DNA of 64,000 bases from Patescibacteria group bacterium (GTDB lineage Bacteria; Patescibacteriota; Minisyncoccia; Phycocordibacterales; JAKFXT01), in assembly GCA_021731245.1 (NCBI GenBank), contig JAKFXT010000008.1:1045-65044 (forward strand). The letters are read 5' to 3'. Under the pieces are notes generated by a model that saw only the letters and a program-made list of their open reading frames with translations, searched no databases and was not told the DNA's origin. The translations under genes were made by a program, and so were the position numbers. Each line of letters begins with the position of its first letter. Position 1 is the first letter of the stretch. Below are positions 5,067 through 51,345 of the stretch, one piece after another.

Positions 5067-6290
5067 CTAATCTTTTGAGAAGTGTTTTATATAGTGTGGG
5101 AGTTCTAATACGGGCACTGTTTCTTGAGAGCGGTTTTTCATATTGCGTATTATGGCACTGCCTTCAAGGGCCTCCTTTTGACCTATTATTATCATGAAAG
5201 GAATTTTCAGACTTTCTGCTGTTGCAATTTGAGCTGAAATTCTATCTTTAGAAAGAGATTGGTGAATTGGGATTTTTCCTTTACGTAATATTTCAAGTGC
5301 GGCCAAGCTTTTTATTTTTGCTTCAAACCCCAAGTGTATTAAATAAACTTTTGGTTTTTTTGTTTTTAGTTCTTGCTTTGTCTTTTTGGGAACCAATCCT
5401 AGTCCACCAAGGGAAATAGTGATACCAACAGCGGGCACTTCTTTTTTAGCACCGAAACGCTTTACCAAATCATCAAACCTACCTCCACGAGCAAGGACTG
5501 GGTCAAATTTATTTTTGGGATACATTTTATTTTGTTCGTTTTTGGTTTTTATTTCAAAAATAGTACGGGTGTAATATTCCTTTCCTCCCACAAGACAATT
5601 ATTTATTGTGTAAGGGACATTCATGCTTTCCAAAAATTCAAGAACTTCTGCAAAGTGAATACGACTTGTTTCTGTGAGGGCACTTATTGGTTTCGGCGCC
5701 TGATCCTTAAAGAGCATGCACTTATCTTGGGCACATTCTAGAACTTTGAATATATCTTTTTTCAAATTAGGGCGACAATGTGAAGGAACTTCTTCTTCGT
5801 GCTTTTTATAGTAATTATTGAACTCTCTACTGAAGCGAGCGATTGATTCACGGTCTCCCAAACTATTTATTTGAATAAAAGGGTCAGCAAATCCAGACTC
5901 TTCTATTATGGTAAGAGCTGTTTTGAATAGTAGGGCTTCAGCAATTGAACGTGACACCCCGATAATCTCCAGAGAAAACAAAACTGCATCTTTCCCGCCA
6001 TAATCTTCGCGCTTCATGTATTTACGAAGCGGCTCTGTGTGATAAAGCATTAATGGTTGTGGAAGCTCTCCAAAATTGTAATCAAGATAAGCTTTCATTA
6101 AGTCTGGTCTATTTATTTCTCCAGGGAGACCCTCTTTTGCTTCGGCTGGCGCAAAAGCTTTCTTTCTACCAGTCCTAGGTAGAATCTTTAGAGTTTCTTG
6201 TAATGAAGAAAATCCATAATAATTAGCAATTGATATTGCGTTTTCGAAAAGTTCATTTTTTGATCCTTTATCCATAATCAAATTATTCAA
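5067..6290 (-). CDS. hisS: histidyl-tRNA synthetase-like class II aaRS (divergent)
   Basis: motif 3-like ARGGRFDDL, INSLGDRES, LVGGKEYYTRTIFE and C-terminal anticodon-binding-like domain; motif 2 arginines partly replaced by K. Confidence 0.55.
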   Translation of the reverse strand: MNNLIMDKGSKNELFENAISIANYYGFSSLQETLKILPRTGRKKAFAPAEAKEGLPGEINRPDLMKAYLDYNFGELPQPLMLYHTEPLRKYMKREDYGGKDAVLFSLEIIGVSRSIAEALLFKTALTIIEESGFADPFIQINSLGDRESIARFSREFNNYYKKHEEEVPSHCRPNLKKDIFKVLECAQDKCMLFKDQAPKPISALTETSRIHFAEVLEFLESMNVPYTINNCLVGGKEYYTRTIFEIKTKNEQNKMYPKNKFDPVLARGGRFDDLVKRFGAKKEVPAVGITISLGGLGLVPKKTKQELKTKKPKVYLIHLGFEAKIKSLAALEILRKGKIPIHQSLSKDRISAQIATAESLKIPFMIIIGQKEALEGSAIIRNMKNRSQETVPVLELPHYIKHFSKD

Positions 6291-6888
6291 CTTTTTCTTC
6301 CAAATTTATTTTTCCAGGAAACAAACTTATATCTTTTGGTGGATACAATCTTAGAAAAGCTCTGCCGATTATATTTTCTTTCGGTACGGCTCCCCAAATT
6401 CTGGAATCCGAACTGTGAGAACGGTTGTCTCCAAGTACAAAGTACTCATCTTTCTTAAGTGTTGTTTGAAATTGTCCAACAGACTTAAAAGTTATATATG
6501 ATTGGTCAATTTGGAAACCATTTGGGTTCTTATTATTTTTTATAGTTATATTATTGTCAGAAATTAAAACAGTTTCTTCAGGTAGAGCTATTATTCTTTT
6601 AATAAAATATTTTTCAGGATTTTTAGGATAGCGAAAGATGATGACATCATTTCGTTTAGGGTCTTCTAGATTATAAGAGATGCGATCTACTATTAAATAA
6701 TTCAAATCTTCAAAAGTTGGTTCCATTGAGGCACCGGAAACTATGAATGGTTCTGCAATAAAAAAGCGAATAGGAAGTACTATTGCTAAAGTTATAATCA
6801 CGAAGCGAAATGTTTCTTTAAAGAACGATTCTTCTTTTTTTTCTTCCATATTGGTGCCAATTGTAATACCCGCATTCGTTTGACACAA
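6283..6888 (-). CDS. lepB: signal peptidase I
   Basis: N-terminal TM, catalytic GASMEPTF (Ser) box and GDNRSHSSDSRIWG box. Confidence 0.85.
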   Translation of the reverse strand: MCQTNAGITIGTNMEEKKEESFFKETFRFVIITLAIVLPIRFFIAEPFIVSGASMEPTFEDLNYLIVDRISYNLEDPKRNDVIIFRYPKNPEKYFIKRIIALPEETVLISDNNITIKNNKNPNGFQIDQSYITFKSVGQFQTTLKKDEYFVLGDNRSHSSDSRIWGAVPKENIIGRAFLRLYPPKDISLFPGKINLEEKVE

Positions 6889-8838: not shown

Positions 8839-9063
8839 TTGTATTCGTGGAGGGCCCCTTTAAATTTAAGACACTAATGACTTAAATTTTAGAGAAGTTT
8901 ACTTTCCGCGATTGGCTAATAATCAATTCCTTAAAACAAAAAAGCTCATGGAGCTTTTCATTAAATTAGCACAATATTTGGGAAATGACAAACCCCGCTA
9001 AGAGCGGGGGTCTGGCCGGCACACAGTCGAGCTGTGCGCCGGCCAGATTTTGCCGGGCTTTTA

Positions 9064-9244
9064 TCATTCAGGATTTATTCTTCTTATTACCTGGACGTGG
9101 CGGCTTGGGCCGCTTTGCCCGCTTTTTACTGCTTTCTTCTTGGACGATTTCTTTTTACCTGACGCTTTTCTACTTCTTTTTTTCGCCGCCGCCGGCGCCG
9201 ATGGTGGAACCGCGGAAGCCGGTTTTCGCTTTTTTCTTCGCCAT
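9064..9244 (-). CDS. Lys/Ala/Gly-rich basic small ORF, GC-rich, apparently frameshifted at an A7 run
   Basis: AAGGAG RBS 7 nt before ATG 9244 gives MAKKKAKTGFRGSTIGAGGGEKKK-stop; +1 frame continues KASGKKKSSKKKAVKSG... to 9064. Confidence 0.3.
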
Positions 9245-9433
9245 ATCAATCTCCTTAGAGGTGGTTGCGAAATAGCATCAAGACCGAAATGGTCCAAAAG
9301 ATGAACTGATGCCATTTAAAATTCTATACCCGTTTTAATTTTATGTAAATTATTTTCTGTGTTTAAAATAAAAAAACCAACCAATCGCGAAGATTGAAGT
9401 CGGTATGTTTCTGAAAGAACTTTAGAGACTTCG

Positions 9434-9481
9434 GCCCGCCACTGGACCCTTAGATCCGGACCCTTAGATCCAGTGGCGGGC
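9434..9481. other. 12-bp perfect hairpin (gcccgccactgg/ccagtggcgggc) whose loop is a tandem 13-nt direct repeat (acccttagatccgg x2)
   Basis: read directly in the 358-nt divergent intergenic region 9316-9673. Confidence 0.4.
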
Positions 9482-9673
9482 AGGCCATCATAATTCCGAG
9501 GATTCCGCGGATCCTTACGAAATTTTAAAATAGAACAAAAGACAGCAAAGCGTTCTTATCACCCAAGCCTAGCAACCCACCAGTGCCTGAAGCGGGAGCC
9601 GCTCTTAAAGTTATATTACTTAATTTAAAAGTCAATTTTTACAAAAACCTTTCGAAGAGTTAAACTGTGCTTC

Positions 9674-13292: not shown

Positions 13293-13398
13293 AATAAATA
13301 GCACTGTTAATTGTTAGTTGGGGCTTGTGGGTTATAATTTACTTGTGTCATTTGCATATCCTAAATCAAATATTTCCAACCTTTTAATAGGAGAAGAA

Positions 13399-13872
13399 AT
13401 GAAAGTGTTAGACGTTGGTGCCGGAAGTGGTGCCTATACTTTGGCGGTGGCCGAACTTGCAAAGAACGGCAAGGTTTATGCAGTGGATGTACAGAAAGAA
13501 CTATTGGCTAAAATAAAAGCAGAAGGAGCCAAAAGGCATTTACATAATATAGAAGGAATTTGGGCTGATATAGAAAAGCCCCACGCTACAAAACTGGCTG
13601 ACAAAATAATAGATGTCGGAATCGTTTCTAATATTTTATTTCAAGTAGAACACAAAGAAGGCCTAGCAAAGGAGGTTTCTCGTTTGATTAGACCAAGAGG
13701 TAAACTAATGGTAATTGATTGGAGCGATTCTTTTGGCGGACTTGGCCCACAGGCGAAAGACGTTTTTAATGCTAATCGCACCAAAGGATTGTTTGAAACG
13801 GTTGGATTCAAATCAGTTAAAGAGTTTGATGCGGGCGACCACCACTACGGTATAATATTTGAACGAACATAA
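13399..13872 (+). CDS. class I SAM-dependent methyltransferase
   Basis: motif I VLDVGAGSGAYT; RBS GGAGAAG before ATG 13399. Confidence 0.6.
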   Translation: MKVLDVGAGSGAYTLAVAELAKNGKVYAVDVQKELLAKIKAEGAKRHLHNIEGIWADIEKPHATKLADKIIDVGIVSNILFQVEHKEGLAKEVSRLIRPRGKLMVIDWSDSFGGLGPQAKDVFNANRTKGLFETVGFKSVKEFDAGDHHYGIIFERT

Positions 13873-13876
13873 ATCT

Positions 13877-15184
13877 ATGGGTGAAATGTCACGATTCCAA
13901 ATAATTCTCCTTGCCCTCTTTGTATTTTTTATAATTGGAGGCGTTTTGGCCTTCTCTCTTTATCAAGGTTCAAAACAAAACGCTCATCCTCAAGTTGTGC
14001 TCTGGGGGACGCTTTCTGAGCAAATGTTTCGCACCATGTTTGATAGTGGAGAATATAGATCAAGTGGGCTTAATGTTTTTTATGTTGAAAAGGATGCAGT
14101 CACATTTGATAGAGATTTTGTAAACGCTCTTGCTGAAGGCAAAGGACCCGATTTAGTTTTGATGCCACAGGACTTGATTCAAAAAGAGAAAAACAAATTA
14201 GGCTTAATTCCATTTGAAACATATTCAGAAAGATCATATAAAGATTCTTTTGTAGAAGGAACGGAAATATTTATAGAAAGTGGGGGAGTGTCAGCCATTC
14301 CTTTTACAGTAGATCCGCTAGTTATGTATTGGAATCGTAATTTATTTCAAAATGCAGGTGTGTCTGTGCCTCCGAAACAGTGGGATGAATTTTTTGCTCT
14401 AGCTAGTAAATTGAGCGAAAAGGATAGTGCCGGAAACGTAAGAAAGAGCGTTGCTCCGCTCGGAGGGTTTTCTAATGTTAGAAATGCTAAAGAATTGATA
14501 AGTCTATTATTGATGCAGTCGGGCTCTTCTATTGTGATTGTTGGTTCACAAGGTGGACTTGAGGTTGATTTAAATAATTCAAAGCAAGTTGGAGGACAAA
14601 GTGGTGCCGAGCAAGCTCTTACTTTTTATACTACTTTCACCGACCCGACCTCTCCGAACCATTCTTGGAGTCGTGCTCTCCCAGAGTCTCAAAACGCATT
14701 TATAGGAGGAAATCTTGCAACTTATTTTGGTTTTGCAAGTGAACTTCCTAGTATAAGAGCGAAGAATCCTAATTTAAATTTTGATATTACAACCGTTCCT
14801 CAATTAAAAGGTTCAAACGTTAAAATGACCTACGGTCGTTTCAGCGCTTTTGCAATTCCTCTTCAAGCGAAAAACGGAGGAGAAGCAATTTTGGTAGCCC
14901 AAACCTTTACCTCAACACCGTTTGTGGCGCGCTTTACAGAAATAACAGGTCTTCCTCCAGTTAGACGCGACCTACTCTCTATTCCTCCCACAGATTCATA
15001 TAAACAAGTTTTCTATGGAAGCGCGCTTATAAGTCGTAGCTGGAGAGACCCAAATGGACTTGAGAGTAATAATATTTTCTCAAGTATGATTGATGATATT
15101 AATTCTGGGCGCGAAGGAGTGGGGAGTGCTTTGAGTAACGCTTCTGCGCAATTACAGCAACTATTACGTAGTTCAAATAATTAA
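13877..15184 (+). CDS. membrane-anchored extracellular solute-binding-protein-like protein (orphan; no permease/ATPase nearby)
   Basis: N-terminal TM anchor, ~430 aa, composition typical of family-1 SBPs; weak. Confidence 0.35.
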   Translation: MGEMSRFQIILLALFVFFIIGGVLAFSLYQGSKQNAHPQVVLWGTLSEQMFRTMFDSGEYRSSGLNVFYVEKDAVTFDRDFVNALAEGKGPDLVLMPQDLIQKEKNKLGLIPFETYSERSYKDSFVEGTEIFIESGGVSAIPFTVDPLVMYWNRNLFQNAGVSVPPKQWDEFFALASKLSEKDSAGNVRKSVAPLGGFSNVRNAKELISLLLMQSGSSIVIVGSQGGLEVDLNNSKQVGGQSGAEQALTFYTTFTDPTSPNHSWSRALPESQNAFIGGNLATYFGFASELPSIRAKNPNLNFDITTVPQLKGSNVKMTYGRFSAFAIPLQAKNGGEAILVAQTFTSTPFVARFTEITGLPPVRRDLLSIPPTDSYKQVFYGSALISRSWRDPNGLESNNIFSSMIDDINSGREGVGSALSNASAQLQQLLRSSNN

Positions 15185-15216: not shown

Positions 15217-15669
15217 ATGAACATGTTTAAAAAAATCCTTGCTACAGCAATACCCTTTATTTTTTCCTTGAGTCTATTATTACCAGTAGTTTCTACTGAA
15301 GTTTTTGCACAACAGGACAGGTCTGTAAATACAAATTCTTCAAATCAGGATAGAGGAGTTAATACAAATAGTCAGAATCAAACTTGTACAGGTAATGATT
15401 GTACTCTAACTAATCCTTTCACCATTAGCACTGTCACACAATTATTAAATGCCATTCTGGATATACTTATAAAAATTGGTTGGATATTAGCATTCTTCTT
15501 TCTTATTTATGCTGGATTTTTATTTGTTACTGCCGCAGGAAGCGAGGAACAAATAAATAAAGCCAAAGATACATTTAAATGGACGGTTATAGGTTCCGCC
15601 ATTGTTCTTGGCGCTAAAGCCCTAGCTATTATCATTGAAACTACTGTGAAAGAAGTGGTAGGAAGATAA
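15217..15669 (+). CDS. TrbC/VirB2-like small pilin-family protein, paralog 1 (N-terminal Q/N-rich repeats, CTGNDC)
   Basis: signal peptide, then two-helix core with LFVTAAGSEE...K..FKWT motif shared with the next three ORFs. Confidence 0.5.
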   Translation: MNMFKKILATAIPFIFSLSLLLPVVSTEVFAQQDRSVNTNSSNQDRGVNTNSQNQTCTGNDCTLTNPFTISTVTQLLNAILDILIKIGWILAFFFLIYAGFLFVTAAGSEEQINKAKDTFKWTVIGSAIVLGAKALAIIIETTVKEVVGR

Positions 15670-15672
15670 AAA

Positions 15673-16044
15673 ATGAAATCTTTTTTTAAATTGTTAATTG
15701 TTAGTTGTGGGTTGTTAGTCCCACTTATTGTTTTCGCCGCTCCAGAAAATTTCAAATCTTTAATTAATATATTCACCAATTTAATAAAAGCTATAATTCC
15801 AGTAATAGGAGGCCTAGCAATTCTTTATTTCTTTTGGGGTATAGCAAAATATATATTTTCTGCTGGCAGTGAAGAACTTCGAAGTGAGGCTAAAAATGTA
15901 ATGACTTGGGGACTGGTTGCAATGTTCGTCATGTTTTCTTTTTATGGAATTTTGTCACTTTTTGGGTACTCTTTTTTACCTAGTTTTGGTCAAAATAGCT
16001 CTGGGTCAAACAATTTAGAAATCATAGACCCGTATAGACCTTAA
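15673..16044 (+). CDS. TrbC/VirB2-like small pilin-family protein, paralog 2
   Basis: signal peptide; FFWGIAKYIFSAGSEE...K..MTWGLVAMFVMF core. Confidence 0.5.
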   Translation: MKSFFKLLIVSCGLLVPLIVFAAPENFKSLINIFTNLIKAIIPVIGGLAILYFFWGIAKYIFSAGSEELRSEAKNVMTWGLVAMFVMFSFYGILSLFGYSFLPSFGQNSSGSNNLEIIDPYRP

Positions 16045-16152
16045 TGAGAGAACTTCTTGTTAGCGGTTTCTATCCACAGGACCCCTTGTTTAAGCTGGGA
16101 AATACTTGTAAAATGTAAGTATTTAAAAGGTTATTAGTTATTTATTTAGTAA

Positions 16153-16524
16153 ATGAAAAAAACTTATATAAAGTTAGCAATATTATTAGCTTCTTTTATT
16201 CCTGTTTTAGCTTTGGCTCAAGCTGGTCAAGCTATAGGTACGCTTGATGATATTATTGGGCAAATTGCAGGAATTGTTCAAAAATTAATTCCTATAGCTT
16301 TCGGTCTCGCTATTTTAGGATTTTTCTGGGGCTTGGCCAAATATATCTTCTCTGCTGGAAACGAAGAAAGTAAGGTAGAAGGTAAGAAAATAATGCTTTA
16401 TGGACTTGTTGCGATTTTTGTTATGGCTTCAGTTTTCGGAATTGTAAGATTGGCTCAAAGAACTCTGGGTATAGATGATCGCGCTAATATTAATGTGCCA
16501 AACGTTACTATTCCTAGGAACTAG
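16153..16524 (+). CDS. TrbC/VirB2-like small pilin-family protein, paralog 3
   Basis: signal peptide; FFWGLAKYIFSAGNEE...K..MLYGLVAIFVMA core. Confidence 0.5.
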   Translation: MKKTYIKLAILLASFIPVLALAQAGQAIGTLDDIIGQIAGIVQKLIPIAFGLAILGFFWGLAKYIFSAGNEESKVEGKKIMLYGLVAIFVMASVFGIVRLAQRTLGIDDRANINVPNVTIPRN

Positions 16525-16559
16525 CACATCTTGTATTTTTCTGTTGGTTTCTTCTGTAA

Positions 16560-16805
16560 TTGATGACGTCAGATCAAATTCTAAATAATATTATTTCAAG
16601 TATAATTCAACCCTTCGTTGGCTTACTCTTTGCTGTCGCTTTCCTTGTATTCTTTTGGGGAATTTTCCAAATGATAAAAGGAGCCGATAGTGAAGAGGAT
16701 TTGAAGACAGGAAAGCGCCACTTACTTTGGGGGCTCATTGGCTTACTTATTATGTTTGGGGCACAGGGAATACTGATGATAATAAAAGGTACGTTTCAGT
16801 TGTAG
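16560..16805 (+). CDS. TrbC/VirB2-like small pilin-family protein, paralog 4 (short)
   Basis: FFWGIFQMIKGADSEE...K..LLWGLIGLLIMF core, 81 aa. Confidence 0.45.
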   Translation: MMTSDQILNNIISSIIQPFVGLLFAVAFLVFFWGIFQMIKGADSEEDLKTGKRHLLWGLIGLLIMFGAQGILMIIKGTFQL

Positions 16806-16833
16806 GACGTAAATCATTTAAGAAAAAGAAAAA

Positions 16834-16854
16834 GCCGCCTTGGGGGCGGCTTTT
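16834..16854. terminator. bidirectional terminator after pilin array / GC-rich island
   Basis: hairpin gccgcc-ttgggg-gcggc then TTTT on + ; T-rich run on - strand. Confidence 0.55.
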
Positions 16855-16883
16855 CGTCGGGTGTTAAACCCAACAATTAAAGA

Positions 16884-17570
16884 TCATTTCAGTTTCGCAA
16901 ACCAGAGGAGCTCTTTTTTCGACATGGAGGCGACTTCGAACTTGACGCCGGTGAGTTCGGGTTTTTCTGAAATGAAGCTCGTCCCTGGACGATCCCCATC
17001 AAAGACCCAATTTCTTTCCGGTTTTTCTCCGTCATCGCACAGAATGCCTCGGCTTTTCACCTCGCCCGAACTGTTGAAGCCTCGATAGGCGACACACCCT
17101 CTCTCTTTTCCAGTCAGGCCCTGTTCCCAGGGTCGGGAGTCTATCTGGAAAACAACCAGACTCCCATCTGCAGGCAAGGCTTTCTCGATCCTTGAAATCG
17201 AGACAGCTTTCGGACTTTCACTTTTCCACCAGTCTCGCAGGGATTGACCCCAGGGAGAAAGGAGAAACAGTGATAAAGCAAAGGCCGTAACCGATAGGCA
17301 CCAGCTCCGTCTGATGAAGCTGTTATCGGTAAAGTTGATCAGTGCGGCTGTAGCTGTCGCAATGACGGCTACGTTCAAGGCAAGCCATACTGGTCTCCAG
17401 AGCTCGACGTCGAAGGTATTCTTTTCAAGCAGAGAGTAAGCCACGAGGAGAGATGCGGCGAAGATGATTCCTCCGCCAGCATATACCCCGTACTTTTTCA
17501 CTGTTTGGTAGATTTCCTGACTTCTTTCGACGAGCGCTGGGTCTTTCACACGACTAATTGTTGTAGACAT
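16884..17570 (-). CDS. membrane protein in a GC-rich island (partner of SPFH-like gene)
   Basis: 3-4 TM helices N-terminal, soluble C-terminal domain; GC3-rich codons unlike neighbours. Confidence 0.4.
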   Translation of the reverse strand: MSTTISRVKDPALVERSQEIYQTVKKYGVYAGGGIIFAASLLVAYSLLEKNTFDVELWRPVWLALNVAVIATATAALINFTDNSFIRRSWCLSVTAFALSLFLLSPWGQSLRDWWKSESPKAVSISRIEKALPADGSLVVFQIDSRPWEQGLTGKERGCVAYRGFNSSGEVKSRGILCDDGEKPERNWVFDGDRPGTSFISEKPELTGVKFEVASMSKKELLWFAKLK

Positions 17571-17585
17571 GGATAGCTCCTGATC

Positions 17586-18671
17586 TCAAGCTGTTTTACC
17601 GAAGATTTGCTTAAGGGTGGCCACGGCCGCGTCTGCGCCTTGACCTTGTACCCCGATGATGCTGAGGGAAGCTCTCTCCGCGCTTACTAAAACCGTCTTC
17701 ATCGCGTCGTCGAAGGAAATTTCTTTCCCTCCGTCTTTCTTACTTTCCACGACGAGTCTGTTGGCGGCTCTGCGATATCGCTCCACGACAGCTTCATTGG
17801 TAATCGCTTCCTGTAGAGATTTGTCGATCTCAACATCATTGATTGTTGCAACAAGGATGTTGATGCCATACATCTTTTCTTTTTCACCACGAGCTTTAAC
17901 GCTCGGATCGACTTCTCCTGTCGCCGTCACTCCGGTACCCAAAGCTGTCACGGCAATTTTTTTCAGTTTTTCAATTTCTTGCCTTGTTTCAGCCGGAGTC
18001 AGTTTGCAGATTTCCTTCATCAGGGCCTCTGATACAGATTTGATGAGAGCCTCTTCGATTGCAGACTCATCAACCCCTAGATGTTGAGGAAGTTCGGCAA
18101 GAACTCTGCGAAATTGCAGCAGCCCCTTGATCTTCACCAGGGGGCCAATTTCCTTATCGTTCTCTCCTCTTGTGGGGAAGTCTTCTTCGAAGGAGCGTTC
18201 GGTAAGACGAAGATTGATGTAACGACTTTTCTCCACTTGTTCCCATGGTAGCCGGACGGAAAGTCCCGGTCCGTACACACGCATGTTTCCCGTGAAGTAA
18301 TTCGTCGTGACGAGTCCCGTCCATTCCGTAACCGAGACACTCAGTCCTTCGAAAAATTTGTTGAAGAAAAGAGTGAATAGTCCCAGCCCCAAAAGCCAGC
18401 CATATTGCAGGCCAACAGATGAGAATGAAACTCCCGCAAGTACGATGAAAGCGGAGAGAGCTAAAACCATAAGCAAGATAGCGAAGCTAACTCGCTGGTT
18501 TTGTTGCACATACCACTCATCGCCGAGGGCAAGGGTGTCGTCCACTAAGGGCGACGTAGACCTTTCTGACCAAGACCATGTCGGCCAAGACCAATTTATA
18601 AGTTTCATTTTCTGATTCTCCTCATTGGTTAATTCTGGTTTTTGTCGATGGGAAGAGGCGGAATGCCTCAA
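17586..18671 (-). CDS. SPFH/band-7 (stomatin/prohibitin-like) domain membrane protein in a GC-rich island
   Basis: two N-terminal TM helices, then GLSVRLPWEQVEKSRYINLRLTE, similar to SPFH beta-sheet core; Ala/Glu-rich helical C-term. Confidence 0.4.
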   Translation of the reverse strand: MRHSASSHRQKPELTNEENQKMKLINWSWPTWSWSERSTSPLVDDTLALGDEWYVQQNQRVSFAILLMVLALSAFIVLAGVSFSSVGLQYGWLLGLGLFTLFFNKFFEGLSVSVTEWTGLVTTNYFTGNMRVYGPGLSVRLPWEQVEKSRYINLRLTERSFEEDFPTRGENDKEIGPLVKIKGLLQFRRVLAELPQHLGVDESAIEEALIKSVSEALMKEICKLTPAETRQEIEKLKKIAVTALGTGVTATGEVDPSVKARGEKEKMYGINILVATINDVEIDKSLQEAITNEAVVERYRRAANRLVVESKKDGGKEISFDDAMKTVLVSAERASLSIIGVQGQGADAAVATLKQIFGKTA

Positions 18672-19062
18672 CCCGAACTAAATCGTATCTACCCCTAATA
18701 ATAGCATATTTTATAGTAAAAGTCAAGTGCTAGAAACACAAAAATACGGCTTTATTTAGCCGTATTTTTGTGTAATTTTATTTGCGGTGAACTTGTGGTC
18801 ACAAATATTTCCTCGTCGTCACTAGAAAATTTCGCGACCCCAGCTCGCGATTTCATTTGCTAATGAAATATCGCTCCGCTTCTCACAAACTAAAAACCTC
18901 CCGCAGGGGAGATTTTTTACGTTTGTGAGCAACAATAATTTGTTCGCCGTCGCTCACAAATTTTCCTTACCCGGCCTCACTTATTTTACTTGCTAGTAAA
19001 ATATAGTTCCGGCTCTCACAAGCATGAAAAAATCCCAAGCAGTTGGGATTTGTTTCATCTTG

Positions 19063-19144
19063 TGAGCAAGAGAGGACTCGAACCTCCACCCCTTGCGGGA
19101 CCAGTTCCTAAGACTGGCGCGTATACCAATTCCGCCACTTGCCC
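19063..19144 (-). tRNA. tRNA-Leu (anticodon TAG), long variable arm
   Basis: cloverleaf folded by hand: acceptor GGGCAAG/CTTGCTC, anticodon loop CTTAGGA, T-arm GGTTCGAGTCC. Confidence 0.8.
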
Positions 19145-19218
19145 AATGAAAAACATACTAACATAAAGTTTAAATTTTTTATTGCTGATAGTTTTTAAAT
19201 CTGTTACATTTCACAAAT

Positions 19219-19291
19219 CCGCCCATAGCTCAGTTGGTAGAGCAGATCCCTCTTAAGGATAAGGTCGTAGGTTCGAATCCTACTGGGCGGA
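19219..19291 (+). tRNA. tRNA-Lys (anticodon CTT)
   Basis: acceptor CCGCCCA/TGGGCGG, D-arm GCTCAGTTGGTAGAGC, anticodon loop CTCTTAA, T-arm GTAGGTTCGAATCCTAC. Confidence 0.75.
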
Positions 19292-19454
19292 CTATTTTAT
19301 TTTCGGGTGGGGAATCGGTCACAAATAATTTTCTGCTGAAAATTTTCGCGACCCGACAAATAGTGCTTAGGCACTGTTTGTCCGCGCCGTCGCGCTACAA
19401 CTTTCGATTCCCGCCAGCCAAAAATTTATACCCACACAAGGCAGGTATAAATTT

Positions 19455-19540
19455 TTGGTGCTCAGGGCGGGAATCGAACCCGCATGCCTTGCGGCCAGAG
19501 ATTTTAAGTCTCTTACGTCTACCAATTTCGTCACCCGAGC
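19455..19540 (-). tRNA. tRNA-Leu (anticodon TAA), CCA encoded
   Basis: acceptor GCTCGGG, anticodon stem-loop AGAGA-CTTAAAA-TCTCT, long variable arm, T-arm GCGGGTTCGATTCCCGC, 3' ACCA. Confidence 0.8.
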
Positions 19541-19561
19541 GCTAACAAAAGTAAAACTAAG

Positions 19562-19589
19562 TTTTACTTGAGGCGTAGGGCGGAATCGA
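19562..19589 (-). repeat. duplicated 3' fragment of tRNA-Cys (28 nt identical to 19702-19729: last ~19 nt of the tRNA plus 9 nt flank)
   Basis: read directly: ttttacttgaggcgtagggcggaatcga occurs twice ~140 nt apart. Confidence 0.6.
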
Positions 19590-19710
19590 GTCACAAATAA
19601 TTTGTTCGCCGTCGCTCACAAATTTTTGCGACCCCGTCTCGCGATTTATTTTACTAAATAAATCATCACTCCGACCGTTCGCTTCCTAAGTAAAATATAC
19701 ATTTTACTTG

Positions 19711-19782
19711 AGGCGTAGGGCGGAATCGAACCGCCGTATAAGAGTTTTGCAGACTCTCGCCTTACCACTTGGCCACTACGCC
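19711..19782 (-). tRNA. tRNA-Cys (anticodon GCA)
   Basis: acceptor GGCGTAG/CTACGCC, anticodon stem-loop AGAGT-CTGCAAA-ACTCT, T-arm GGCGGTTCGATTCCGCC. Confidence 0.8.
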
Positions 19783-28770: not shown

Positions 28771-30531
28771 CTACTGCGCACGTTTTACAGAATAAATTAG
28801 TATTGGTTTTGATTTTCCTTTTACTACCACTTCACCAAGTGGTTTTGTTTCAAATTTTGTTTTATCTTTTATTTTTTCTAGAGTCGTGTCCCCAATAATT
28901 AAAGGTGTTTTATAATCTTTAGTTATTCCTTCAATGCGTGAACCTGCGTTCACGGTGTCCCCAATAGCCGTGTAATCAAATCTATGTTCAGAGCCAACAT
29001 TTCCGACAACCGCTTTTCCTGTATAAATTCCAACACCTATCGCAATTTCTGGGTCTCCCTGCGCACGAAGCACTACATTTAACTCATCAAGTGCCTCCAG
29101 CATTCCAAGCCCCGCCTCAACAGCTTTATCTGCTTGTAGAGGTTCATCAAGTGGAGCTCCCCAAAATGCCATAATAGCGTCTCCAATGTACTTATCTAAA
29201 ACTCCATCTTTTTCTATTATTTTTTTCGTTACAGCTGAAAAATACATATTTAAAATTCGGACGAGTTCAGTGGGTGTTGTTTTTTCTGAAATAGAAGTGA
29301 ATCCGCGAATATCAGAAAAAAGGACTGTAATTTCTTTTTCTTCTCCTCCTAAAACAACTTTTTCAGGAGAACTTAATAATTCGTCCAGTACATGAGGAGA
29401 AACATATTTAGAAAATGTGGCTTTAATAATTTTTCTTTCTTTTTCTCCAATAAGAGATCTGTATAGCCCCAAAGAAAGTGTCGTTAATACCCAAGAGAGT
29501 GTTATGTGAATCATATTGACCACAACCCCCTTATCGAAAAGAATAATCGTGGCAACAAGATAAACGACACCGATTATTACATTTACCAAAACGACAAATT
29601 CAATGCGTCTTATAAAGAAGAACAAAAGACAAGAAATAGTAGATGCAAATAAAATCCAAATTAAAGTTAAGTAAGTTTTTAAATCAGTAAGGGAAATGTT
29701 ATTGATAAGCATATTCACAATGTGCCCGTGTATTTCTACCCCAGACATTTCAAGTCCTGCGCCCGTCGGTGTTTTCTGTGAATCATGCAAGCTTGGCGCG
29801 GTGGCACCAAGTAATACAATTTTATCTTTCAGAGTTTCAGCGCTGTCCCCATATAGAACATCTGCAAAAGATATTGTTCTAATGCTTGAGGCGCCACCTG
29901 CAAAATAAATCCTCTCAGGATTCTCTGTACGATTTGTAATTGGTAAATTTGAAACTGAAAGCAGTTTTTCTGCAAAAGGAGCTACTGAGGTATCGGCATT
30001 TTCTAGGTTACTTTTGAAATATTTCCTAGTAACTCCGTCATTGTCTGTTATTACATTGACAAGTCCTAAACTTGTATTTTTAGTTTTAAATTCAGGAAGA
30101 GGTGTGAGTAGGGAATTAGCAAAGAGTTTCCCTTCATCGTTTAAATTCAATTTATCAGCTTGTGTTGCTAGAACTACTGGATAATTAATTTTGGTAAATG
30201 CATTTGATAAATAAACATCATCAAATTTACCAAGGCGTGACTCTTCGCTCCAAATAACATCAATACCAAGTGATATTGGTTTATTTGTATTTAATTTTTC
30301 TACAAAGTCAGCGAAGACTTTTCTTGGCCATGGCCACTGACCAATTTGCTGAATTGATTTATCATCAATTGCCACAATTACAATGCGAGAGGCAATTGGT
30401 TTAGGCGAAAACAGAGTGTCTTCAAGGAATGTCTCTATTCCGTGAAAAAGGCCTCCTACATAGGAAAAAGAAACCAAAATGGCTATGAGTAGGGTGATTG
30501 AAAGATATTTTACTCTCTCACTTTTGTTCAT
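28771..30531 (-). CDS. CHASE2 sensor domain-containing class III adenylate/guanylate cyclase
   Basis: N-terminal TM + extracytoplasmic CHASE2-like region, TM bundle, C-terminal VLFSDIRGFTSISE...YIGDAIMAFWGAP cyclase motifs. Confidence 0.8.
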   Translation of the reverse strand: MNKSERVKYLSITLLIAILVSFSYVGGLFHGIETFLEDTLFSPKPIASRIVIVAIDDKSIQQIGQWPWPRKVFADFVEKLNTNKPISLGIDVIWSEESRLGKFDDVYLSNAFTKINYPVVLATQADKLNLNDEGKLFANSLLTPLPEFKTKNTSLGLVNVITDNDGVTRKYFKSNLENADTSVAPFAEKLLSVSNLPITNRTENPERIYFAGGASSIRTISFADVLYGDSAETLKDKIVLLGATAPSLHDSQKTPTGAGLEMSGVEIHGHIVNMLINNISLTDLKTYLTLIWILFASTISCLLFFFIRRIEFVVLVNVIIGVVYLVATIILFDKGVVVNMIHITLSWVLTTLSLGLYRSLIGEKERKIIKATFSKYVSPHVLDELLSSPEKVVLGGEEKEITVLFSDIRGFTSISEKTTPTELVRILNMYFSAVTKKIIEKDGVLDKYIGDAIMAFWGAPLDEPLQADKAVEAGLGMLEALDELNVVLRAQGDPEIAIGVGIYTGKAVVGNVGSEHRFDYTAIGDTVNAGSRIEGITKDYKTPLIIGDTTLEKIKDKTKFETKPLGEVVVKGKSKPILIYSVKRAQ

Positions 30532-30533
30532 GC

Positions 30534-31913
30534 TTATTGCCCACCTATATCAAGTGGTGTTGATAGGGTGGGGGCATTTACTGTTATATTCGCACTCATT
30601 CCAATGGCATTTCTTTCTCCCTTTCTTGTTACTGCTATAAGTCCTACACCTTGCCCCGATTCTGAAATTTGGTCACCCAATTTGGCTACAAATATCCCAG
30701 GCCCACTGATGTTTCCTACGAATCCAATTACTTGCCAAGCGACAAGCTCGGTGACATCTACTTTTTTACCATCTCTCATTACATAAGCTCTGAATTTTAT
30801 AGTACTTCCTTCCTCTACTATAAGTCGGTCACTTGTTTCAATTGTTACCTTGTCGTTAACAGTAACCTCAAGAGTCCTAACTACGGTTTCAGTTTCTGTA
30901 GTTCTTACAGTCTCTGTTTTTATTTCAGTTGTTTCCTTGCTTTCAGTTTTCGTTTCGTCTCTTTCGTAAATAATGTCTTTTTCTTCACCAGTTAATCTTT
31001 CTATTGTTTTTTTCACATCCAATCTTTTACCTTCCAAGAACGCCTTTCTCTTTTCTTCAGTAAGTTCAATAAGTTTTTCTTTTGATTCAGCTTTTTTATC
31101 TTGAAGTCTTGTTTCAATGTCCTTAACTTCGGCATCTACTTCTTTGTGCTTTTCTTTAACTTGTTTTACCCAACTATCTTCTACAATTAGATTTGGTACA
31201 TCAGCAATTTTGTTTGTGAGGAATGCTTTTCTAGGATTTTCTACCGTTCCCGTTTCTGTTGTTGTAGAGGTTTGCTCTTTATTTATATTATTTACGTCTA
31301 CATTATTTATTTCTACATATTTTTTCTCCTCAATTATTATTTCTGCATCAGCTATTTTCTCCTTTGTTTCGGGGTCTAGTGGGGAAACAGCTACTTTGTG
31401 TTCAGAAGTATTTACCCAACTTGTAGTGCCTTTGAAGCCCATACCGAAAGCCGTGCCACGAACTGTGGCCACTGTGTTACTGGTCTTTACCTCCCATTCG
31501 GACTCTGGTGTTGCCAAAGATATAACTTTAGACCAAACACGTCCTACTGTGAGAGTTATTTTTATCAAAATACTTTTGTTACCATCATTTACCTCAATTT
31601 GTGGAATGGTAACTGCAGTTTCTTTATCCATACTCAATATTGAGCCGTCAGGGAAGTGAATTATCGCAGAACTATTTTTGCCAGTTTCAAGAGAAGCTCC
31701 ACTTTCTATAACGTCGCCACTTTTAAGTTGTCTAGATTGTCCTGGGAGCTTAAGAAATAGTGTGCCACGCTCTACTTCTACCCATGCCGTTTTTATAATA
31801 TTACCCTCTACTTTTGCGGGGCTATTATTTTCCGAATTATTATTTTTTAAAGCAAAAAAAGCTCCTCCACCTAGTATTAAAACAGCAATTCCTCCAAGAA
31901 TTAAGTTTTTCAT
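30534..31913 (-). CDS. FecR-domain protein with coiled-coil region and C-terminal Ig-like (Big_2-like) domain
   Basis: TM anchor then FecR-like beta motif (GDVIESGASLETGKNSSAIIHFPDGSILSM), E/K-rich helix, Ig-like C-terminus; directly upstream of CHASE2 cyclase. Confidence 0.55.
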   Translation of the reverse strand: MKNLILGGIAVLILGGGAFFALKNNNSENNSPAKVEGNIIKTAWVEVERGTLFLKLPGQSRQLKSGDVIESGASLETGKNSSAIIHFPDGSILSMDKETAVTIPQIEVNDGNKSILIKITLTVGRVWSKVISLATPESEWEVKTSNTVATVRGTAFGMGFKGTTSWVNTSEHKVAVSPLDPETKEKIADAEIIIEEKKYVEINNVDVNNINKEQTSTTTETGTVENPRKAFLTNKIADVPNLIVEDSWVKQVKEKHKEVDAEVKDIETRLQDKKAESKEKLIELTEEKRKAFLEGKRLDVKKTIERLTGEEKDIIYERDETKTESKETTEIKTETVRTTETETVVRTLEVTVNDKVTIETSDRLIVEEGSTIKFRAYVMRDGKKVDVTELVAWQVIGFVGNISGPGIFVAKLGDQISESGQGVGLIAVTRKGERNAIGMSANITVNAPTLSTPLDIGGQ

Positions 31914-39145: not shown

Positions 39146-41320
39146 CTATTTTTTCTTTGCGTCTATTTTATGTGGATTATGATTTGCGCATATTTTACTT
39201 GAGCATCTTTCTGGAATTGTTTTAGTGCCCTCCATCATTAGGGAGTTACAAAGTTTACAAATCGCTCCAGTTGGCTTTGCTTTGATAGCATTTTTACAAT
39301 CAGGATAATCACTGCAAGAATAAAATATTCCAAATTTACCACGTCTTTCAATCATTGTTCCTTTATTACATGTTGGACAATTTACCCCAGTATTTTTCTT
39401 AGCGGCCTCAATCGGATCTTCTTTTATAAATTTACATTTAGGATAATTATTACAAGCGATGAAGCGTCCAAATCTTCCATCACGTTCGATAAGCATTCCT
39501 TTTGAACAATCAGGACACTTTTCTCCAGTTTCTTTTGGTCCTTGAAGTTCCTCGCCTGTTTCTGTACGAGCTCCCTGACAATCTGGAAATTTAGAACAAC
39601 TCATAAACTTTCCATTTTTGGATAATTTAAAAATCATATCAGCGCCACACTTTGGACATTTAAATTCAGCGGAAGCAGGACCCAAATCGGTAATTTTTTT
39701 TGCTTCTTTGGTTTTTATTTTTACATCTTTAAGAAATGGAGTGTAGAAATCTCTAAGAGTTTTAACATATTCACGTTTCCCGTTGGCGATATCATCAAGC
39801 TCATCTTCCATTTCAGCTGTAAAAGTATCACTTATATAATTTCCAAAGTTTTCTTCTAGAAATGTACTAACAACGCCACCTGTTTCTGTTGGTTTTAGCG
39901 CGCGACCCTCTTTCACTACATAACCTCTTTGGTCCAGTGTTTTCATAATGGAGGCGTAAGTAGAAGGACGTCCTATGCCACGTTTTTCTAGTTCTTTAAC
40001 AAGCCCTGCTTCTGTGTAGCGTGGTGGTGGTTCCGTTTCTTTCCCTTGCGAATTTATTTCTATCAATTTCAAATCTTCGTCCACTATAACTTTTGGCAAT
40101 TCTACATCTTCTCCACGTGCGTCAGTGTCGCAGGCGAGCCATCCTGGGAAAAGGACACGAGAACCTGTTGTGGAAAATGGGGGAGCATCCCCATCGATTA
40201 TTTCTGTAATTATTTTTGTTCGGAGTAGCTTGGCATCAGCCATTTGAGAAGAAACAGCTCTGTCGTGAATTAGTCTATAAAGTTTTTTCTGCTCCTCATT
40301 ATTCCCAGCGCTCATTTTAGTTGCATGTGATGGACGTATGGCTTCGTGCGCTTCTTGTGCATTTTTACTTTTAGTAGCAAATTGTTTTAGTGCCAAATAT
40401 TCTTTTCCATATTCTTTTTCAATTACCCCAGCAATTTCTTTTTGCGCTCCTAGACTCAAAGTAGTTGAGTCTGTTCTCATATAAGTTATAAAACCAGCTT
40501 CATATAATTTCTGTGCAATGCCCATAGTGCGTGATGGAGAAAATCCAAGACGAGAGGAGGCTGTTTGTTGAAGAGTAGATGTGGTAAATGGTGCGCGAGC
40601 AGAACGTTTTACTTCGCTTTCCACAACGTCCGCTACTTTCCAGAGCTTTGTATTTCCAGCTTTAAGTATTTTTTCCACTTCTTTTTCATCTCGCGGTTCT
40701 TTTTCGCAAGTGACTAGAAAACTAGCGTTTTTGTTTTTTACATTAGCCGTAATAACCCAATATTTTTCTGGGATGAAAGCGCGTATTTCTCGCTCGCGTT
40801 CCATTATTATGCGCAAAGCTGGGGATTGAACACGTCCAGCAGAAAGCCCATAACGAACCTTTTTCCAAATAAGCCCTGATAAATCATATCCCACCAATCT
40901 ATCCAAAACGCGACGAGCTTCCTGTGCCTCCTTTAGCTTCATATCTATAGTACGTGGGTTGGCCACCGCTTCCTTCACTGCTTCTTCTGTAATTTCGTGA
41001 AATGTAACACGCTTTGGCTTTTTAAGTCCCAAAGCTTCTTTAATATGCCAAGCAATAGCTTCCCCCTCTCTATCCGGGTCGGTCGCAAGATATATTTCCT
41101 TTGCTTTTTTAGCTAAGTCCGTTAGTTCTTGAATCACCTTTTCTTTGCCACGACTCACTTCATAATGGGGAATAAAACCACCATCTATATCAATCGCTTT
41201 TTTATTATTTTTAGGCAAATCACGAACATGTCCCACAGACGCACGCACAGTAAAATCCCCACCGAGATATTTCTCAATAGTTTTTGCTTTAGCGGGTGAC
41301 TCTACAATTAATAATTTCAT
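39146..41320 (-). CDS. topA: DNA topoisomerase I with four C-terminal C4 zinc ribbons
   Basis: TOPRIM N-terminus LLIVESPAKAKTI, active-site region, repeated CP.C...C..C ribbons. Confidence 0.9.
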   Translation of the reverse strand: MKLLIVESPAKAKTIEKYLGGDFTVRASVGHVRDLPKNNKKAIDIDGGFIPHYEVSRGKEKVIQELTDLAKKAKEIYLATDPDREGEAIAWHIKEALGLKKPKRVTFHEITEEAVKEAVANPRTIDMKLKEAQEARRVLDRLVGYDLSGLIWKKVRYGLSAGRVQSPALRIIMEREREIRAFIPEKYWVITANVKNKNASFLVTCEKEPRDEKEVEKILKAGNTKLWKVADVVESEVKRSARAPFTTSTLQQTASSRLGFSPSRTMGIAQKLYEAGFITYMRTDSTTLSLGAQKEIAGVIEKEYGKEYLALKQFATKSKNAQEAHEAIRPSHATKMSAGNNEEQKKLYRLIHDRAVSSQMADAKLLRTKIITEIIDGDAPPFSTTGSRVLFPGWLACDTDARGEDVELPKVIVDEDLKLIEINSQGKETEPPPRYTEAGLVKELEKRGIGRPSTYASIMKTLDQRGYVVKEGRALKPTETGGVVSTFLEENFGNYISDTFTAEMEDELDDIANGKREYVKTLRDFYTPFLKDVKIKTKEAKKITDLGPASAEFKCPKCGADMIFKLSKNGKFMSCSKFPDCQGARTETGEELQGPKETGEKCPDCSKGMLIERDGRFGRFIACNNYPKCKFIKEDPIEAAKKNTGVNCPTCNKGTMIERRGKFGIFYSCSDYPDCKNAIKAKPTGAICKLCNSLMMEGTKTIPERCSSKICANHNPHKIDAKKK

Positions 41321-41376
41321 AAGTAGTCACCGCAACAAATAACACGAGGGCTATTGTAGTGTCAAATTTTATTTTT

Positions 41377-42240
41377 TTAAATTCTTCTTATTTCTCCCAA
41401 AGATTCTTTGATTAATCCTTTAATCTCCATTACAGAAAGTAAAGTGTTGATTTCGTTTATTGGCATGTTGATAAGAAAAATTAAATCTTCTTTAGATTTT
41501 GGCTCTCTAAGTATTTCTAGAACTTTTATTTCATCCGCTGAACAGTCACTTGGCATACCAAAATCTAATTTTTCCTTATCAGTTTCTATATGAAGTGCCT
41601 CTAGAATATCGTCACTATTTCTTATTGGTGTTGCGCCCAATTTCAAAAGCATATGCGGACCTTCTGATGTTGTAGAAAACATTGAACCAGGGACTGTTAA
41701 AACATCTCTATTGTATTCTGTTGCAAGGCGCGAAGTTATAAGAGTTCCCGACATTTTCTCGGCTTCAATAACAAATGTGGCGTGCGACATGCCCGCCATT
41801 ATTCTATTTCTTTGTGGGAATGTGTAAGGAGCAGCTTTTAAGTTTGGTTCAAATTCAGAAAGTAAAAGACCCCCTGCTTTCAATATTCTTTCGGACAATC
41901 CAAAATTAGTTCTCGGATAAATTACATTTGGGTGAATTCCAGAACCAGGTATGGCAATAGTTTTTATTCCCGCACTTAATGCAAATTCGTGAGCAAGGGC
42001 ATCCATGCCGAGTGCCATACCAGAAATTATTATTACAGGATATCCACGGAGCCCTTGAATTAATTTTTGACAGGCAGATTTTCCATATTCGCTATATTTA
42101 CGTGAGCCGACAATTGCTAAGAATTTATTATTTTCCCAATCGGGGAGAGTCCCACGATAATAAAGTTTTTTAGGTGGGCTCGGTATTTCTTTTAAAAGGG
42201 GAGGGAAATTTTCTGGAGATATTTCTTTTATCTCATTCAT
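41377..42240 (-). CDS. dprA: DNA processing protein DprA/Smf
   Basis: Rossmann-like core AIVGSRKYSEYG, GMALGMDALAH, FPQRNRIMAG; conserved dprA-topA synteny. Confidence 0.85.
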   Translation of the reverse strand: MNEIKEISPENFPPLLKEIPSPPKKLYYRGTLPDWENNKFLAIVGSRKYSEYGKSACQKLIQGLRGYPVIIISGMALGMDALAHEFALSAGIKTIAIPGSGIHPNVIYPRTNFGLSERILKAGGLLLSEFEPNLKAAPYTFPQRNRIMAGMSHATFVIEAEKMSGTLITSRLATEYNRDVLTVPGSMFSTTSEGPHMLLKLGATPIRNSDDILEALHIETDKEKLDFGMPSDCSADEIKVLEILREPKSKEDLIFLINMPINEINTLLSVMEIKGLIKESLGEIRRI

Positions 42241-49579: not shown

Positions 49580-50083
49580 ATGAAAAATCCTGTCACCATT
49601 CTTTTGGTTGTCGCCGTTATTTTTATGCTTGGATATATAGTTAATTTGAAAGTTTCAAATAAGGATTCAGACACTGACAAAACTCCTGTAACGACAAATA
49701 ATAATGGTCCAAAGATAAATCTAAGTAATCAGGGACTTACAAAAGCCCCAGAATACATCTTTAGTCAAAGTAATCTTGAAGAATTGGACCTCTCTTATAA
49801 TTCGATTGGGGGCGCTTTGCAATCTCAGATTAGAAACTTGAAAAAATTGAAAGTTCTAAACTTAAGTAATAATAAATTTACAGGGGTGCCGGCTGAGGTG
49901 GGTCAACTTGTAAATTTAGAAGTATTAAATTTGAGCAAAAATCAAATTACAGGTTTGCCATACGAGCTTGGTAATTTGAAAAATCTTAAACTTCTCGACT
50001 TATCTCAGAATCAATATTCAGAAATAGATTTGGCAAAAATAAAAGAAACTTTACCAAAAACAACTATTATTAAAACAAAGTAG
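49580..50083 (+). CDS. leucine-rich repeat protein, N-terminal TM anchor
   Basis: five LxxLxLxxNxI/F repeats (LDLSYNSI, LNLSNNKF, LNLSKNQI, LDLSQNQY). Confidence 0.7.
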   Translation: MKNPVTILLVVAVIFMLGYIVNLKVSNKDSDTDKTPVTTNNNGPKINLSNQGLTKAPEYIFSQSNLEELDLSYNSIGGALQSQIRNLKKLKVLNLSNNKFTGVPAEVGQLVNLEVLNLSKNQITGLPYELGNLKNLKLLDLSQNQYSEIDLAKIKETLPKTTIIKTK

Positions 50084-50820: not shown

Positions 50821-51345
50821 ATGAAGGCAGATAATGATAAAATGGAGAAAACCTTTCTAAGAGCATATGAAGATTATAGTGATGCCATTTTTCGCTTCTG
50901 CTACTACAAAACCAATGATAGAGAAGTTGCAAAAGATTTGGCACAAGAAACCTTTGTTAAAACCTGGGACTCTATTCGGGCGGGGAAAGCTGTCAACAAT
51001 TTCAAAGTTTTTCTTTATTTTGTGGCGAGAAATACAGTCATTGATTTTTGGCGCAAAAAGAAATCTATTCCAGAAAGTAGATTGGAGGAAGATTTTTTTG
51101 AAACTGTCGCAAGTGGAGAAGACAGTGAGATGGACGCCGAAATTAGTTTACTTATCTTAAATATGAAGAAATTAGAAAATTCTGATCGCGAACTCATCAC
51201 ACTTAGATTTATTGAAGGTTTAGGTATAAAAGAAATAGCCACGATTTTAAATGAAAGAGAAAATACTGTTTCTGTCCGAATGATGAGAGCTGTGGAACGC
51301 CTGAAAAAAATCACAATGGGACCAGATGGTAATAATAAAATTTAA
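50821..51345 (+). CDS. ECF-type RNA polymerase sigma-70 family factor
   Basis: region 2 (FRFCYYKTNDREVAKDLAQETFVKTW) and region 4 HTH (GLGIKEIATILNERENTVSVRMMRAVERL). Confidence 0.8.
   Translation: MKADNDKMEKTFLRAYEDYSDAIFRFCYYKTNDREVAKDLAQETFVKTWDSIRAGKAVNNFKVFLYFVARNTVIDFWRKKKSIPESRLEEDFFETVASGEDSEMDAEISLLILNMKKLENSDRELITLRFIEGLGIKEIATILNERENTVSVRMMRAVERLKKITMGPDGNNKI

Follow-up and report, generated by a model that had tools for sequence, protein, structure and literature searches.

Are four tandem genes for small membrane proteins in a Patescibacteria genome the pilin genes that they resemble, and what would pilins do in a region that encodes none of the apparatus to assemble them? The question is raised by an array in a 64,000-nt stretch of contig JAKFXT010000008.1 (the whole of this 64-kb stretch is called the window below). 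A sequence-only reading of the DNA took the genes for diverged VirB2/TrbC-like pilin paralogs of a candidate phyla radiation (CPR) bacterium and likened their divergence to antigenic or host-range variation. Judged by gene order and family matches, the locus is a copy of a conserved Paceibacteria operon downstream of gyrA, which is composed of genes for a methyltransferase, a solute-binding protein (SBP) and four members of the Pfam family PF18895 (T4SS_pilin), followed by a probable terminator.

Arrays of diverged pilin genes in CPR genomes, including arrays remote from virB4, are an already published phenomenon. Quiñonero-Coronel et al. (2025; PMC12102498; all statements on this survey refer to the sections and tables cited here) searched 3,035 Patescibacteria genomes with the PF18895, PF04956, and CONJscan profiles and reported 441 arrays of 2–11 VirB2-like genes, in tandem or with one gene in between, with a mean identity of 25% and a maximum of 54%. 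The pilin was near virB4 in only 1,135 of 1,948 assemblies, i.e., away from it in about 40%. With its four tandem genes, 16–48% identity, and Paceibacteria affiliation, the array in the window is of the kind described there. What is new is a class-wide operon of SBP (and methyltransferase) and pilin genes that is consistently remote from virB4 and whose arrays typically end in a leaderless member. No description of the SBP-coupled arrangement, its remoteness from virB4, and the leaderless end was found in the literature searched; in the survey, remote pilins carry only the flag "not near VirB4", and their context is undescribed in the sections cited here.

The operon in the window and across Paceibacteria

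The unit in the window starts with a gene for a class I S-adenosylmethionine-dependent methyltransferase of 184 aa (13318–13872, plus strand; Methyltransf_31, Methyltransf_11, and Methyltransf_25 matches, E 5e-16). It is followed by the gene for a membrane-anchored, MalE-like (family 1) SBP (13859–15184, plus strand; SBP_bac_8, E 1e-16; SBP_bac_1, E 4e-15), the probable true start of which is the ATG at 13877, 4 nt past the methyltransferase stop codon. The four consecutive open reading frames (ORFs) of 150, 123, 123, and 81 aa reported by the sequence-only reading were confirmed, all on the plus strand: P1 (15217–15669), P2 (15673–16044), P3 (16153–16524), and P4 (16560–16805). P1 begins 32 nt after the end of the SBP gene, and the spacings within the array are 3 nt (P1–P2), 108 nt (P2–P3), and 35 nt (P3–P4). 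The predicted terminator flank was also found: a GC-rich, 11-bp hairpin (GCCGCC…GGCGGC, 16829–16855), flagged on the minus strand by the scan, lies between P4 and a convergent gene for a 228-aa protein and is probably a bidirectional terminator that closes the operon. A promoter scan gave matches not above the shuffled expectation, and a local family hidden Markov model (HMM) applied to the six-frame translation of the window detected no fifth copy.

Related loci (labelled L003–L117) were approached from the pilin side and from the SBP side. Scanning GTDB with the P4 orthogroup, together with look-ups of genomic context, gave pilin-side loci from approximately 25 distinct genomes; every distinct locus reaching upstream (about 24) displayed GyrA, usually the methyltransferase, the SBP, and then four to seven pilin genes. 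On the SBP side, at least 504 relatives were retrieved from metagenomes with an SBP alignment as query. Among the best 80 of these, a pilin array directly followed the SBP gene in 71/71 loci with enough downstream sequence, and the SBP, which had been called an orphan in the sequence-only reading, is thus an invariant operon partner of the array. The median gap between the SBP and pilin genes was 4 nt, with 54 of the 71 gaps being no longer than 20 nt and some junctions overlapping. Complete arrays in these loci comprised one to eight genes, with a mode of five to six.

The methyltransferase gene usually lies just upstream of the SBP gene, beside gyrA. In 54 of 63 metagenome loci it was the gene directly before the SBP gene, and it was absent in L018, L019, L021, and L023; in L033, where gyrA is followed by an insertion of four unrelated genes, the methyltransferase–SBP–pilin order is intact. 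The SBP subfamily comprises at least 1,742 clusters, and the module also occurs in Wolfe-, Campbell-, and Taylorbacteria, beside Zambryskibacteria. Homologues and related loci were named Zambryski-, Kaiser-, Wolfe-, or Taylorbacteria, or Paceibacterota. Because of these names we consider the source to be a CPR (Paceibacteria) bacterium, in agreement with the sequence-only reading.

Several loci deserve separate mention. An IS200/IS605-type Y1 transposase gene is situated between gyrA and the methyltransferase gene in one lineage (L010, 6271–6891; L011, 3505–4125). Enlarged array members of 221–324 aa, consisting of a PF18895 core and a long extra domain, were observed in L010 (10001–10666), L024, L033 (11468–12301), and L117 (13582–14319). 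Locus L030 (JBEBJM010000007.1), labelled "Nitrospira sp.", carries the full Paceibacteria GyrA–methyltransferase–SBP–pilin block, which suggests a mis-binned contig. Many metagenome-assembled genomes (MAGs) among L014–L026 are titled "uncultured Candidatus Saccharibacteria" and carry the Paceibacteria-type block; the label looks generic.

The AlphaFold2 (AF2) model of the SBP (pLDDT 93.5) comprised a transmembrane (TM) helix at residues 12–37 followed by a two-lobe fold, which Foldseek matched to sugar and oligosaccharide SBPs (E 8e-23 to 1e-20, TM-score 0.6–0.8). Fold and sequence family are those of the family 1 SBPs of ABC transporters. Unlike them, the protein encoded in the window is TM-anchored, has no adjacent permease or ATPase, and has a pilin array as its constant neighbour; no ABC permease or ATPase (ABC_tran, BPD_transp) was detected among the scanned ORFs of the window.

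All four array proteins exceeded the PF18895 gathering cut-off of 26.6 bits, far beyond chance (P1 38.1, P2 36.1, P3 28.0, and P4 40.0 bits; E 2e-6 to 4e-10). Scores for NF045849, a pilin-like family of Mycoplasma integrative and conjugative elements (ICEs) with a cut-off of 40, were sub-threshold throughout, with only P4 coming near it (34.8 bits). A total of 628 homologues were found, many of them with a precomputed PF04956 match as well as a PF18895 match, and some named "pilin" by NCBI. The 372-aa protein encoded at 52882–54000 was considered as a fifth pilin and rejected, as its NF045849 match (23 bits) was spurious and its family HMM score was −1 bit.

Pairwise identity among P1–P4 was 16–29%, with eight invariant alignment columns. 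The motif FFWG..AKYIFSAG, which had been presented as common to the four proteins, is complete in P2 and P3 only, partial in P4, and loose in P1. The signal peptide had likewise been ascribed to all four and is confined to P1–P3, each of which has a Sec leader with a VFA or ALA site (…VFA↓QQ in P1, …VFA↓AP in P2, …ALA↓QA in P3), followed by two hydrophobic helices with a short charged loop between them. The leaders would be cleaved by type I signal peptidase, and a LepB gene is located at 6283–6888 in the window. In P2, the core carries FFWGIAKYIFSAGSEE; in both P2 and P3, the core is followed by a variable C-tail. In P1, it is preceded by an exposed N-extension of 39 aa with a Cys pair and two copies of an 11-aa repeat. 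The tandem repeat and the CTGNDC motif noted earlier in P1 are both present, the former as two copies only (QDRSVNTNSSN, residues 33–43; QDRGVNTNSQN, residues 44–54; 9/11 identical) that are undetected at the DNA level.

P4, the last gene of the array, encodes a leaderless PF18895 protein of 80–81 aa. A stop codon directly precedes the reading frame, leaving no room for a signal peptide, and the orthologues of P4 start with MTFDQ or MNSDQ, so that the ATG at 16563 is the likely start. The AF2 model of P4 was a confident helical hairpin (helices 3–39 and 44–77, pLDDT 89.8), in line with the two-helix core proposed in the sequence-only reading. Across related loci, a leader was present in the first member of 84 of 94 arrays, and the last member was leaderless in 64 of the 94. 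A P4-type orthologue of 108 aa on a 637-bp ENA contig (P0015) carries an N-terminal signal peptide, and the leaderless state is therefore not universal in the P4 orthogroup.

Age and evolutionary rates of the paralogs

Orthologues were compared using two MAGs from Hainich groundwater (wells H41/H43), L003 and L006, reached via exact or near relatives of P2. Gene order in both is that of the window: GyrA, methyltransferase, SBP, P1, P2, P3, P4, and the convergent gene pair. Identities to the window proteins in the two genomes were 75% and 47% for P1, 59% and 59% for P2, 67% and 65% for P3, and 92% and 78% for P4, the most conserved array member, compared to 94% and 88% for GyrA. Considering the window and related species together, orthologues were 47–92% identical, whereas paralogs were 19–48% identical. 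Based on these sequence comparisons, the paralogs are ancient: the duplications are older than speciation, and the genes form 1:1 orthologues in conserved order.

Rates differed strongly along the proteins. The number of nonsynonymous substitutions per nonsynonymous site (dN) in the core was 0.085 for P1, 0.052 for P3, and 0.061 for P4, against 0.046 for GyrA; the core of P3 was 92% and 85% identical to its orthologues, with a dN of 0.05–0.11. In contrast to its core, the N-extension of P1 reached a dN of 0.38. The C-tail of P2 reached 0.36–0.64, and exposed N-extensions and C-tails generally attained about 0.4–0.8. A two-copy repeat is present in the P1 N-extension of all three species, with sequences that are unrelated between species. 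No region had a ratio of nonsynonymous to synonymous rates (dN/dS) above 1. Synonymous divergence (dS) was saturated (above 1 or undefined), which makes dN/dS unreliable as a test of positive selection and leaves only the dN comparisons usable.

No DNA repeats between paralogs beyond 14 nt were detected, nor were signs of cassette switching, i.e., silent cassettes, invertible promoters, or recombinase genes. The ongoing diversification suggested by the sequence-only reading is thus not borne out, given the 1:1 orthologues, a core dN near that of GyrA, and the lack of repeats and recombinase genes. The rate pattern fits fixed, non-redundant subunits with fast-evolving exposed tails, not actively diversifying cassettes.

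Secretion machinery and the function of the array

Pfam scans of essentially all ORFs of at least 110 aa detected no VirB4, VirD4, VirB6, or VirB11 in the window. Most of its genes are housekeeping genes, encoding FtsZ, FtsA, HisRS, LepB, Pth, S1, GyrA, IF-2, NifS, ClpB, RelA/SpoT, TopA, DprA, SerRS, a DNA polymerase III clamp-loader subunit, and others; the rest encode a few signalling proteins or are unannotated ORFs. Every ORF of at least 450 aa was housekeeping or otherwise assigned, which excludes an ATPase of VirB4 or VirD4 size from the window. The absence of secretion machinery described by the sequence-only reading therefore holds for these 64 kb, but the lineage does possess such machinery elsewhere. 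In GCA_000996025.1, the genome of L028, which has the same locus, the survey tables place a PF18895 pilin at gene 156, VirB4 at gene 160, TrsD at gene 161, VirB3/PrgI at gene 162, and a type IV coupling protein (T4CP) at gene 136. Gene 409 is reported there as a remote VirB2 match, with a flag that VirB4 is not nearby. As seen in this one lineage genome, lineage members own machinery of a type IV secretion system (T4SS) plus a separate virB4-proximal pilin.

The Pfam column of Table S3 of the survey is filled almost only for virB4-proximal proteins, and remote pilins appear in that table only via CONJscan matches (e.g., genes 184, 186, and 188 of GCA_000996035.1). One member only of the remote array is called there in the lineage genome checked, and remote arrays are probably under-called in this table.

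We favour, with a probability of roughly 0.55, the reading that P1–P4 are non-redundant VirB2-like subunits whose genes are expressed together with that of the oligosaccharide-binding membrane protein, and that a monoderm-type T4SS encoded elsewhere uses them for a host-contact structure. The pilus assembly, VirB4 dependence, membrane topology, and SBP role that we infer are as follows. P1–P3 would be exported by Sec and would span the membrane as helical hairpins whose two ends face outward, with the conserved AGSEE..K loop on the cytoplasmic side and the fast-evolving N- or C-terminal tails exposed. P4, as a leaderless hairpin, would probably insert in the manner of ATP-synthase subunit c. 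Together, P1–P4 would form a membrane pool of subunits, on which a T4SS (VirB4–TrsD–PrgI/VirB3) encoded elsewhere in the chromosome would draw for a heteromeric surface filament or channel for host-cell contact. The co-translated SBP may give this structure the ability to recognise oligosaccharides, either to bind the host envelope or to capture ligands.

The T4SS reading is supported by the situation in S. epibionticum, where arrays of the same family are essential and lie inside the VirB4/VirB6/PrgI cluster (six PF18895 genes, SEML1_0014–0019; Wang et al. 2023, PMC10633639). A 2025 review discussed the PF18895 system as a possible pilus in a monoderm, and PF18895 genes were among the most highly expressed unknown genes of cultured Patescibacteria (Kuroda et al. 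2024). The window array shares with the T4SS pilin arrays of Patescibacteria the tandem PF18895/VirB2-like genes, the conserved structure, the identity of about 25%, and a monoderm CPR genome generally without relaxase. It differs from the S. epibionticum array in that it lies outside a virB4 cluster, beside gyrA, together with an SBP and usually a methyltransferase, and typically has a leaderless last member; the T4SS cluster of S. epibionticum has no SBP.

More distant systems resemble the array in part. The VirB2/TrbC/TraA pilins of diderm T4SS (PF04956) have the leader, two hydrophobic helices, short charged loop, and small mature size in common with the window proteins and are related to them at clan level. 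The window set, in contrast, is below the PF04956 threshold, belongs to a monoderm, comprises several paralogs (one leaderless) with extra exposed tails, and has no adjacent VirB3–B11 genes and no evidence of cyclisation or acetylation enzymes. P4 aligns over nearly the full NF045849 model of the pilin-like Mycoplasma ICE proteins Mbov_0395/MMCAP2_0565, both being two-TM proteins of about 80 aa, but it scores below the NCBIfam cut-off and is not on a mobile element. According to Table S3 of the survey, one PF18895 protein (KKR41586.1) also matches the CONJscan profile FATA_PrgF.

A number of results weigh against a pilin function. The PF04956 cut-off of 27.9 bits was reached by none of the four proteins (P1 22.6 bits, P4 19.3 bits, no match for P2 and P3). 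The pilin assignment of the sequence-only reading thus stands for PF18895, whereas the relationship to TrbC/VirB2 is, as far as profile scores indicate, one of clan level and not of membership. Foldseek returned no significant match to solved conjugative pilins (best E 2.4; the archaeal conjugation pilin 8dfu had E 5.9 and rank 22), and a PDB profile search returned 0 matches. In Foldseek, the hairpin fold matched ATP-synthase subunit c and other hairpins of membrane proteins just as well, as was also the case in Table S2 of Wang et al., and a bare hairpin is not discriminating for pilin identity in such searches. A leaderless member such as P4 is atypical for VirB2.

The genomic context adds to these objections. 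VirB4 was present within 8–10 kb in 0 of approximately 100 related loci, the sole related match being a weak T4CP-like ORF in L094, and the linkage of the array to a T4SS therefore rests on homology and on Saccharibacteria. The VirB4 search of the source genome was confined to the window. Moreover, the virB4-adjacent pilin could be the true T4SS pilin, with the SBP-linked array having another job. To our knowledge, no PF18895 protein has yet been shown to form a pilus.

In the main rival reading, the PF18895 hairpins would oligomerise in the membrane into a ring, channel, or scaffold and act with the anchored SBP in uptake, sensing, or adhesion, independently of a T4SS, and the virB4-adjacent copy would be the true pilin. 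We regard this as unlikely on balance. It would account for the obligate linkage of SBP and array (71/71 loci and every upstream-reaching pilin-side locus), with junctions that often overlap or span 0–15 nt, and for an SBP that needs another partner, since no ABC permease or ATPase is nearby. The constant distance from VirB4, the additional PF18895 gene beside virB4 in GCA_000996025.1, and a hairpin fold that ATP-synthase subunit c and other membrane proteins share to an equal degree would follow as well. However, P1–P4 belong to the same Pfam family as the essential pilins of the S. epibionticum T4SS cluster, SBP-dependent transport via two-helix proteins has no known precedent, and the fast-evolving exposed tails fit a surface polymer better than a channel. 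That P1–P4 are generic small membrane proteins (holin-like, bacteriocin or immunity, or defence proteins) with a nominal "pilin" label is a reading to which we give little credence. PF18895 was named by inference, without biochemical characterisation, and the proteins are short, hydrophobic, and leader-bearing, with non-specific fold searches. Yet they gave 0 matches to PHROGs and PADLOC, and a tblastn search with P4 found no homologues in 72,556 plasmids. The array also has a fixed core-genome position beside gyrA across the whole class, its family is essential and embedded in the T4SS cluster of S. epibionticum, and the TrbC/VirB2 and Mycoplasma ICE pilin-like matches, sub-threshold as they are, recur.

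A variation system, in which diversifying paralogs would give a surface filament new antigenic or host-range properties, has been suggested for the VirB2 paralogs of Bartonella and Anaplasma (a proposal cited in the survey) and is voiced as speculation for Patescibacteria in the survey itself. Those arrays are likewise made up of tandem, diverged VirB2-like genes of host-dependent bacteria, but they lie within or beside the virB operon, whereas the window paralogs are ancient, orthologously fixed, and devoid of a cassette signature. The low identity among paralogs (16–48%), the rapid change of the exposed tails (dN about 0.4–0.8), the replacement of the P1 repeat by a different one in each orthologue, and a copy number of one to eight between species would be in keeping with such a system. 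We nonetheless consider it improbable: speciation came after the duplications, the 1:1 orthologues are in conserved order, purifying selection on the cores is about as strong as on GyrA, and no region has a dN/dS above 1, with the reservation that dS is saturated. Neither inter-paralog repeats nor silent cassettes, invertible promoters, or recombinase genes were seen, and the four genes are apparently expressed from one operon with a single terminator.

Neighbouring features and implications

The convergent pair downstream of the array (16884–18671, minus strand) encodes a TM protein of 228 aa, which has a soluble C-terminal domain, and an SPFH/Band_7-like protein of 361 aa with a weak HflC-like match. 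The pair resembles NfeD–SPFH and evolves very fast, with 22–68% identity between close relatives. We rejected it as part of the module: after an iterated HMM search it was detectable in only 9 of 62 loci and is merely a neighbour. Four transfer RNA genes (Leu, Lys, Leu, and Cys; 19062–19782, mixed strands) lie just past the SPFH gene.

Upstream, at the strand switch between the genes for S1 (minus strand) and a Lactamase_B_3 protein (plus strand), there is a gene-free gap of 835 nt (8839–9673) with no Rfam matches and no DnaA-box enrichment; a similar gap is present in L003 (2555–3328). The survey stresses the proximity of arrays to dnaA. A replication origin near the window array was considered and rejected, as DnaA-box matches numbered 21 versus 17 expected, none of them in 8839–9673, and GC skew followed gene strand.

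Further along the window, a FecR-domain protein (459 aa) and then a CHASE2-sensor adenylate/guanylate cyclase (586 aa) are encoded at 28771–31913 on the minus strand, a notable signalling capacity for a reduced genome. The competence-associated gene dprA is directly upstream of the topoisomerase I gene (39146–42240, minus strand), and a 167-aa leucine-rich-repeat protein (LRR_8, E 2e-27) is encoded at 49580–50083 (plus strand). The unannotated 372-aa protein at 52882–54000 (plus strand) has a signal peptide, two mid TM helices, and two extracytoplasmic domains; its gene is preceded by genes for an extracytoplasmic function (ECF) sigma factor and an anti-sigma-like DUF5667 protein (50821–52753).

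In the one Patescibacteria species tested, epibiotic growth requires the T4SS genes, those of the pilin array included, and reviews speculate that the system may serve uptake from the host. A tentative and rather doubtful extension of the T4SS reading is that the SBP and the PF18895 array form a single physical apparatus of Paceibacteria, with the SBP acting as receptor or adhesin of a VirB2-like filament or channel, be it at its tip, at its base, or as its gate. If this were true, the recognition or capture of host-envelope glycans would be coupled to a repurposed T4SS, possibly for import and not export, and a T4SS pilus function dependent on a substrate-binding protein would be without known precedent. 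The context of such pilin arrays can escape surveys that start from virB4. The finding that the main pilin array is tied to an oligosaccharide-binding protein, away from the ATPase genes, provides a testable handle on the cargo and direction of the Patescibacteria T4SS.

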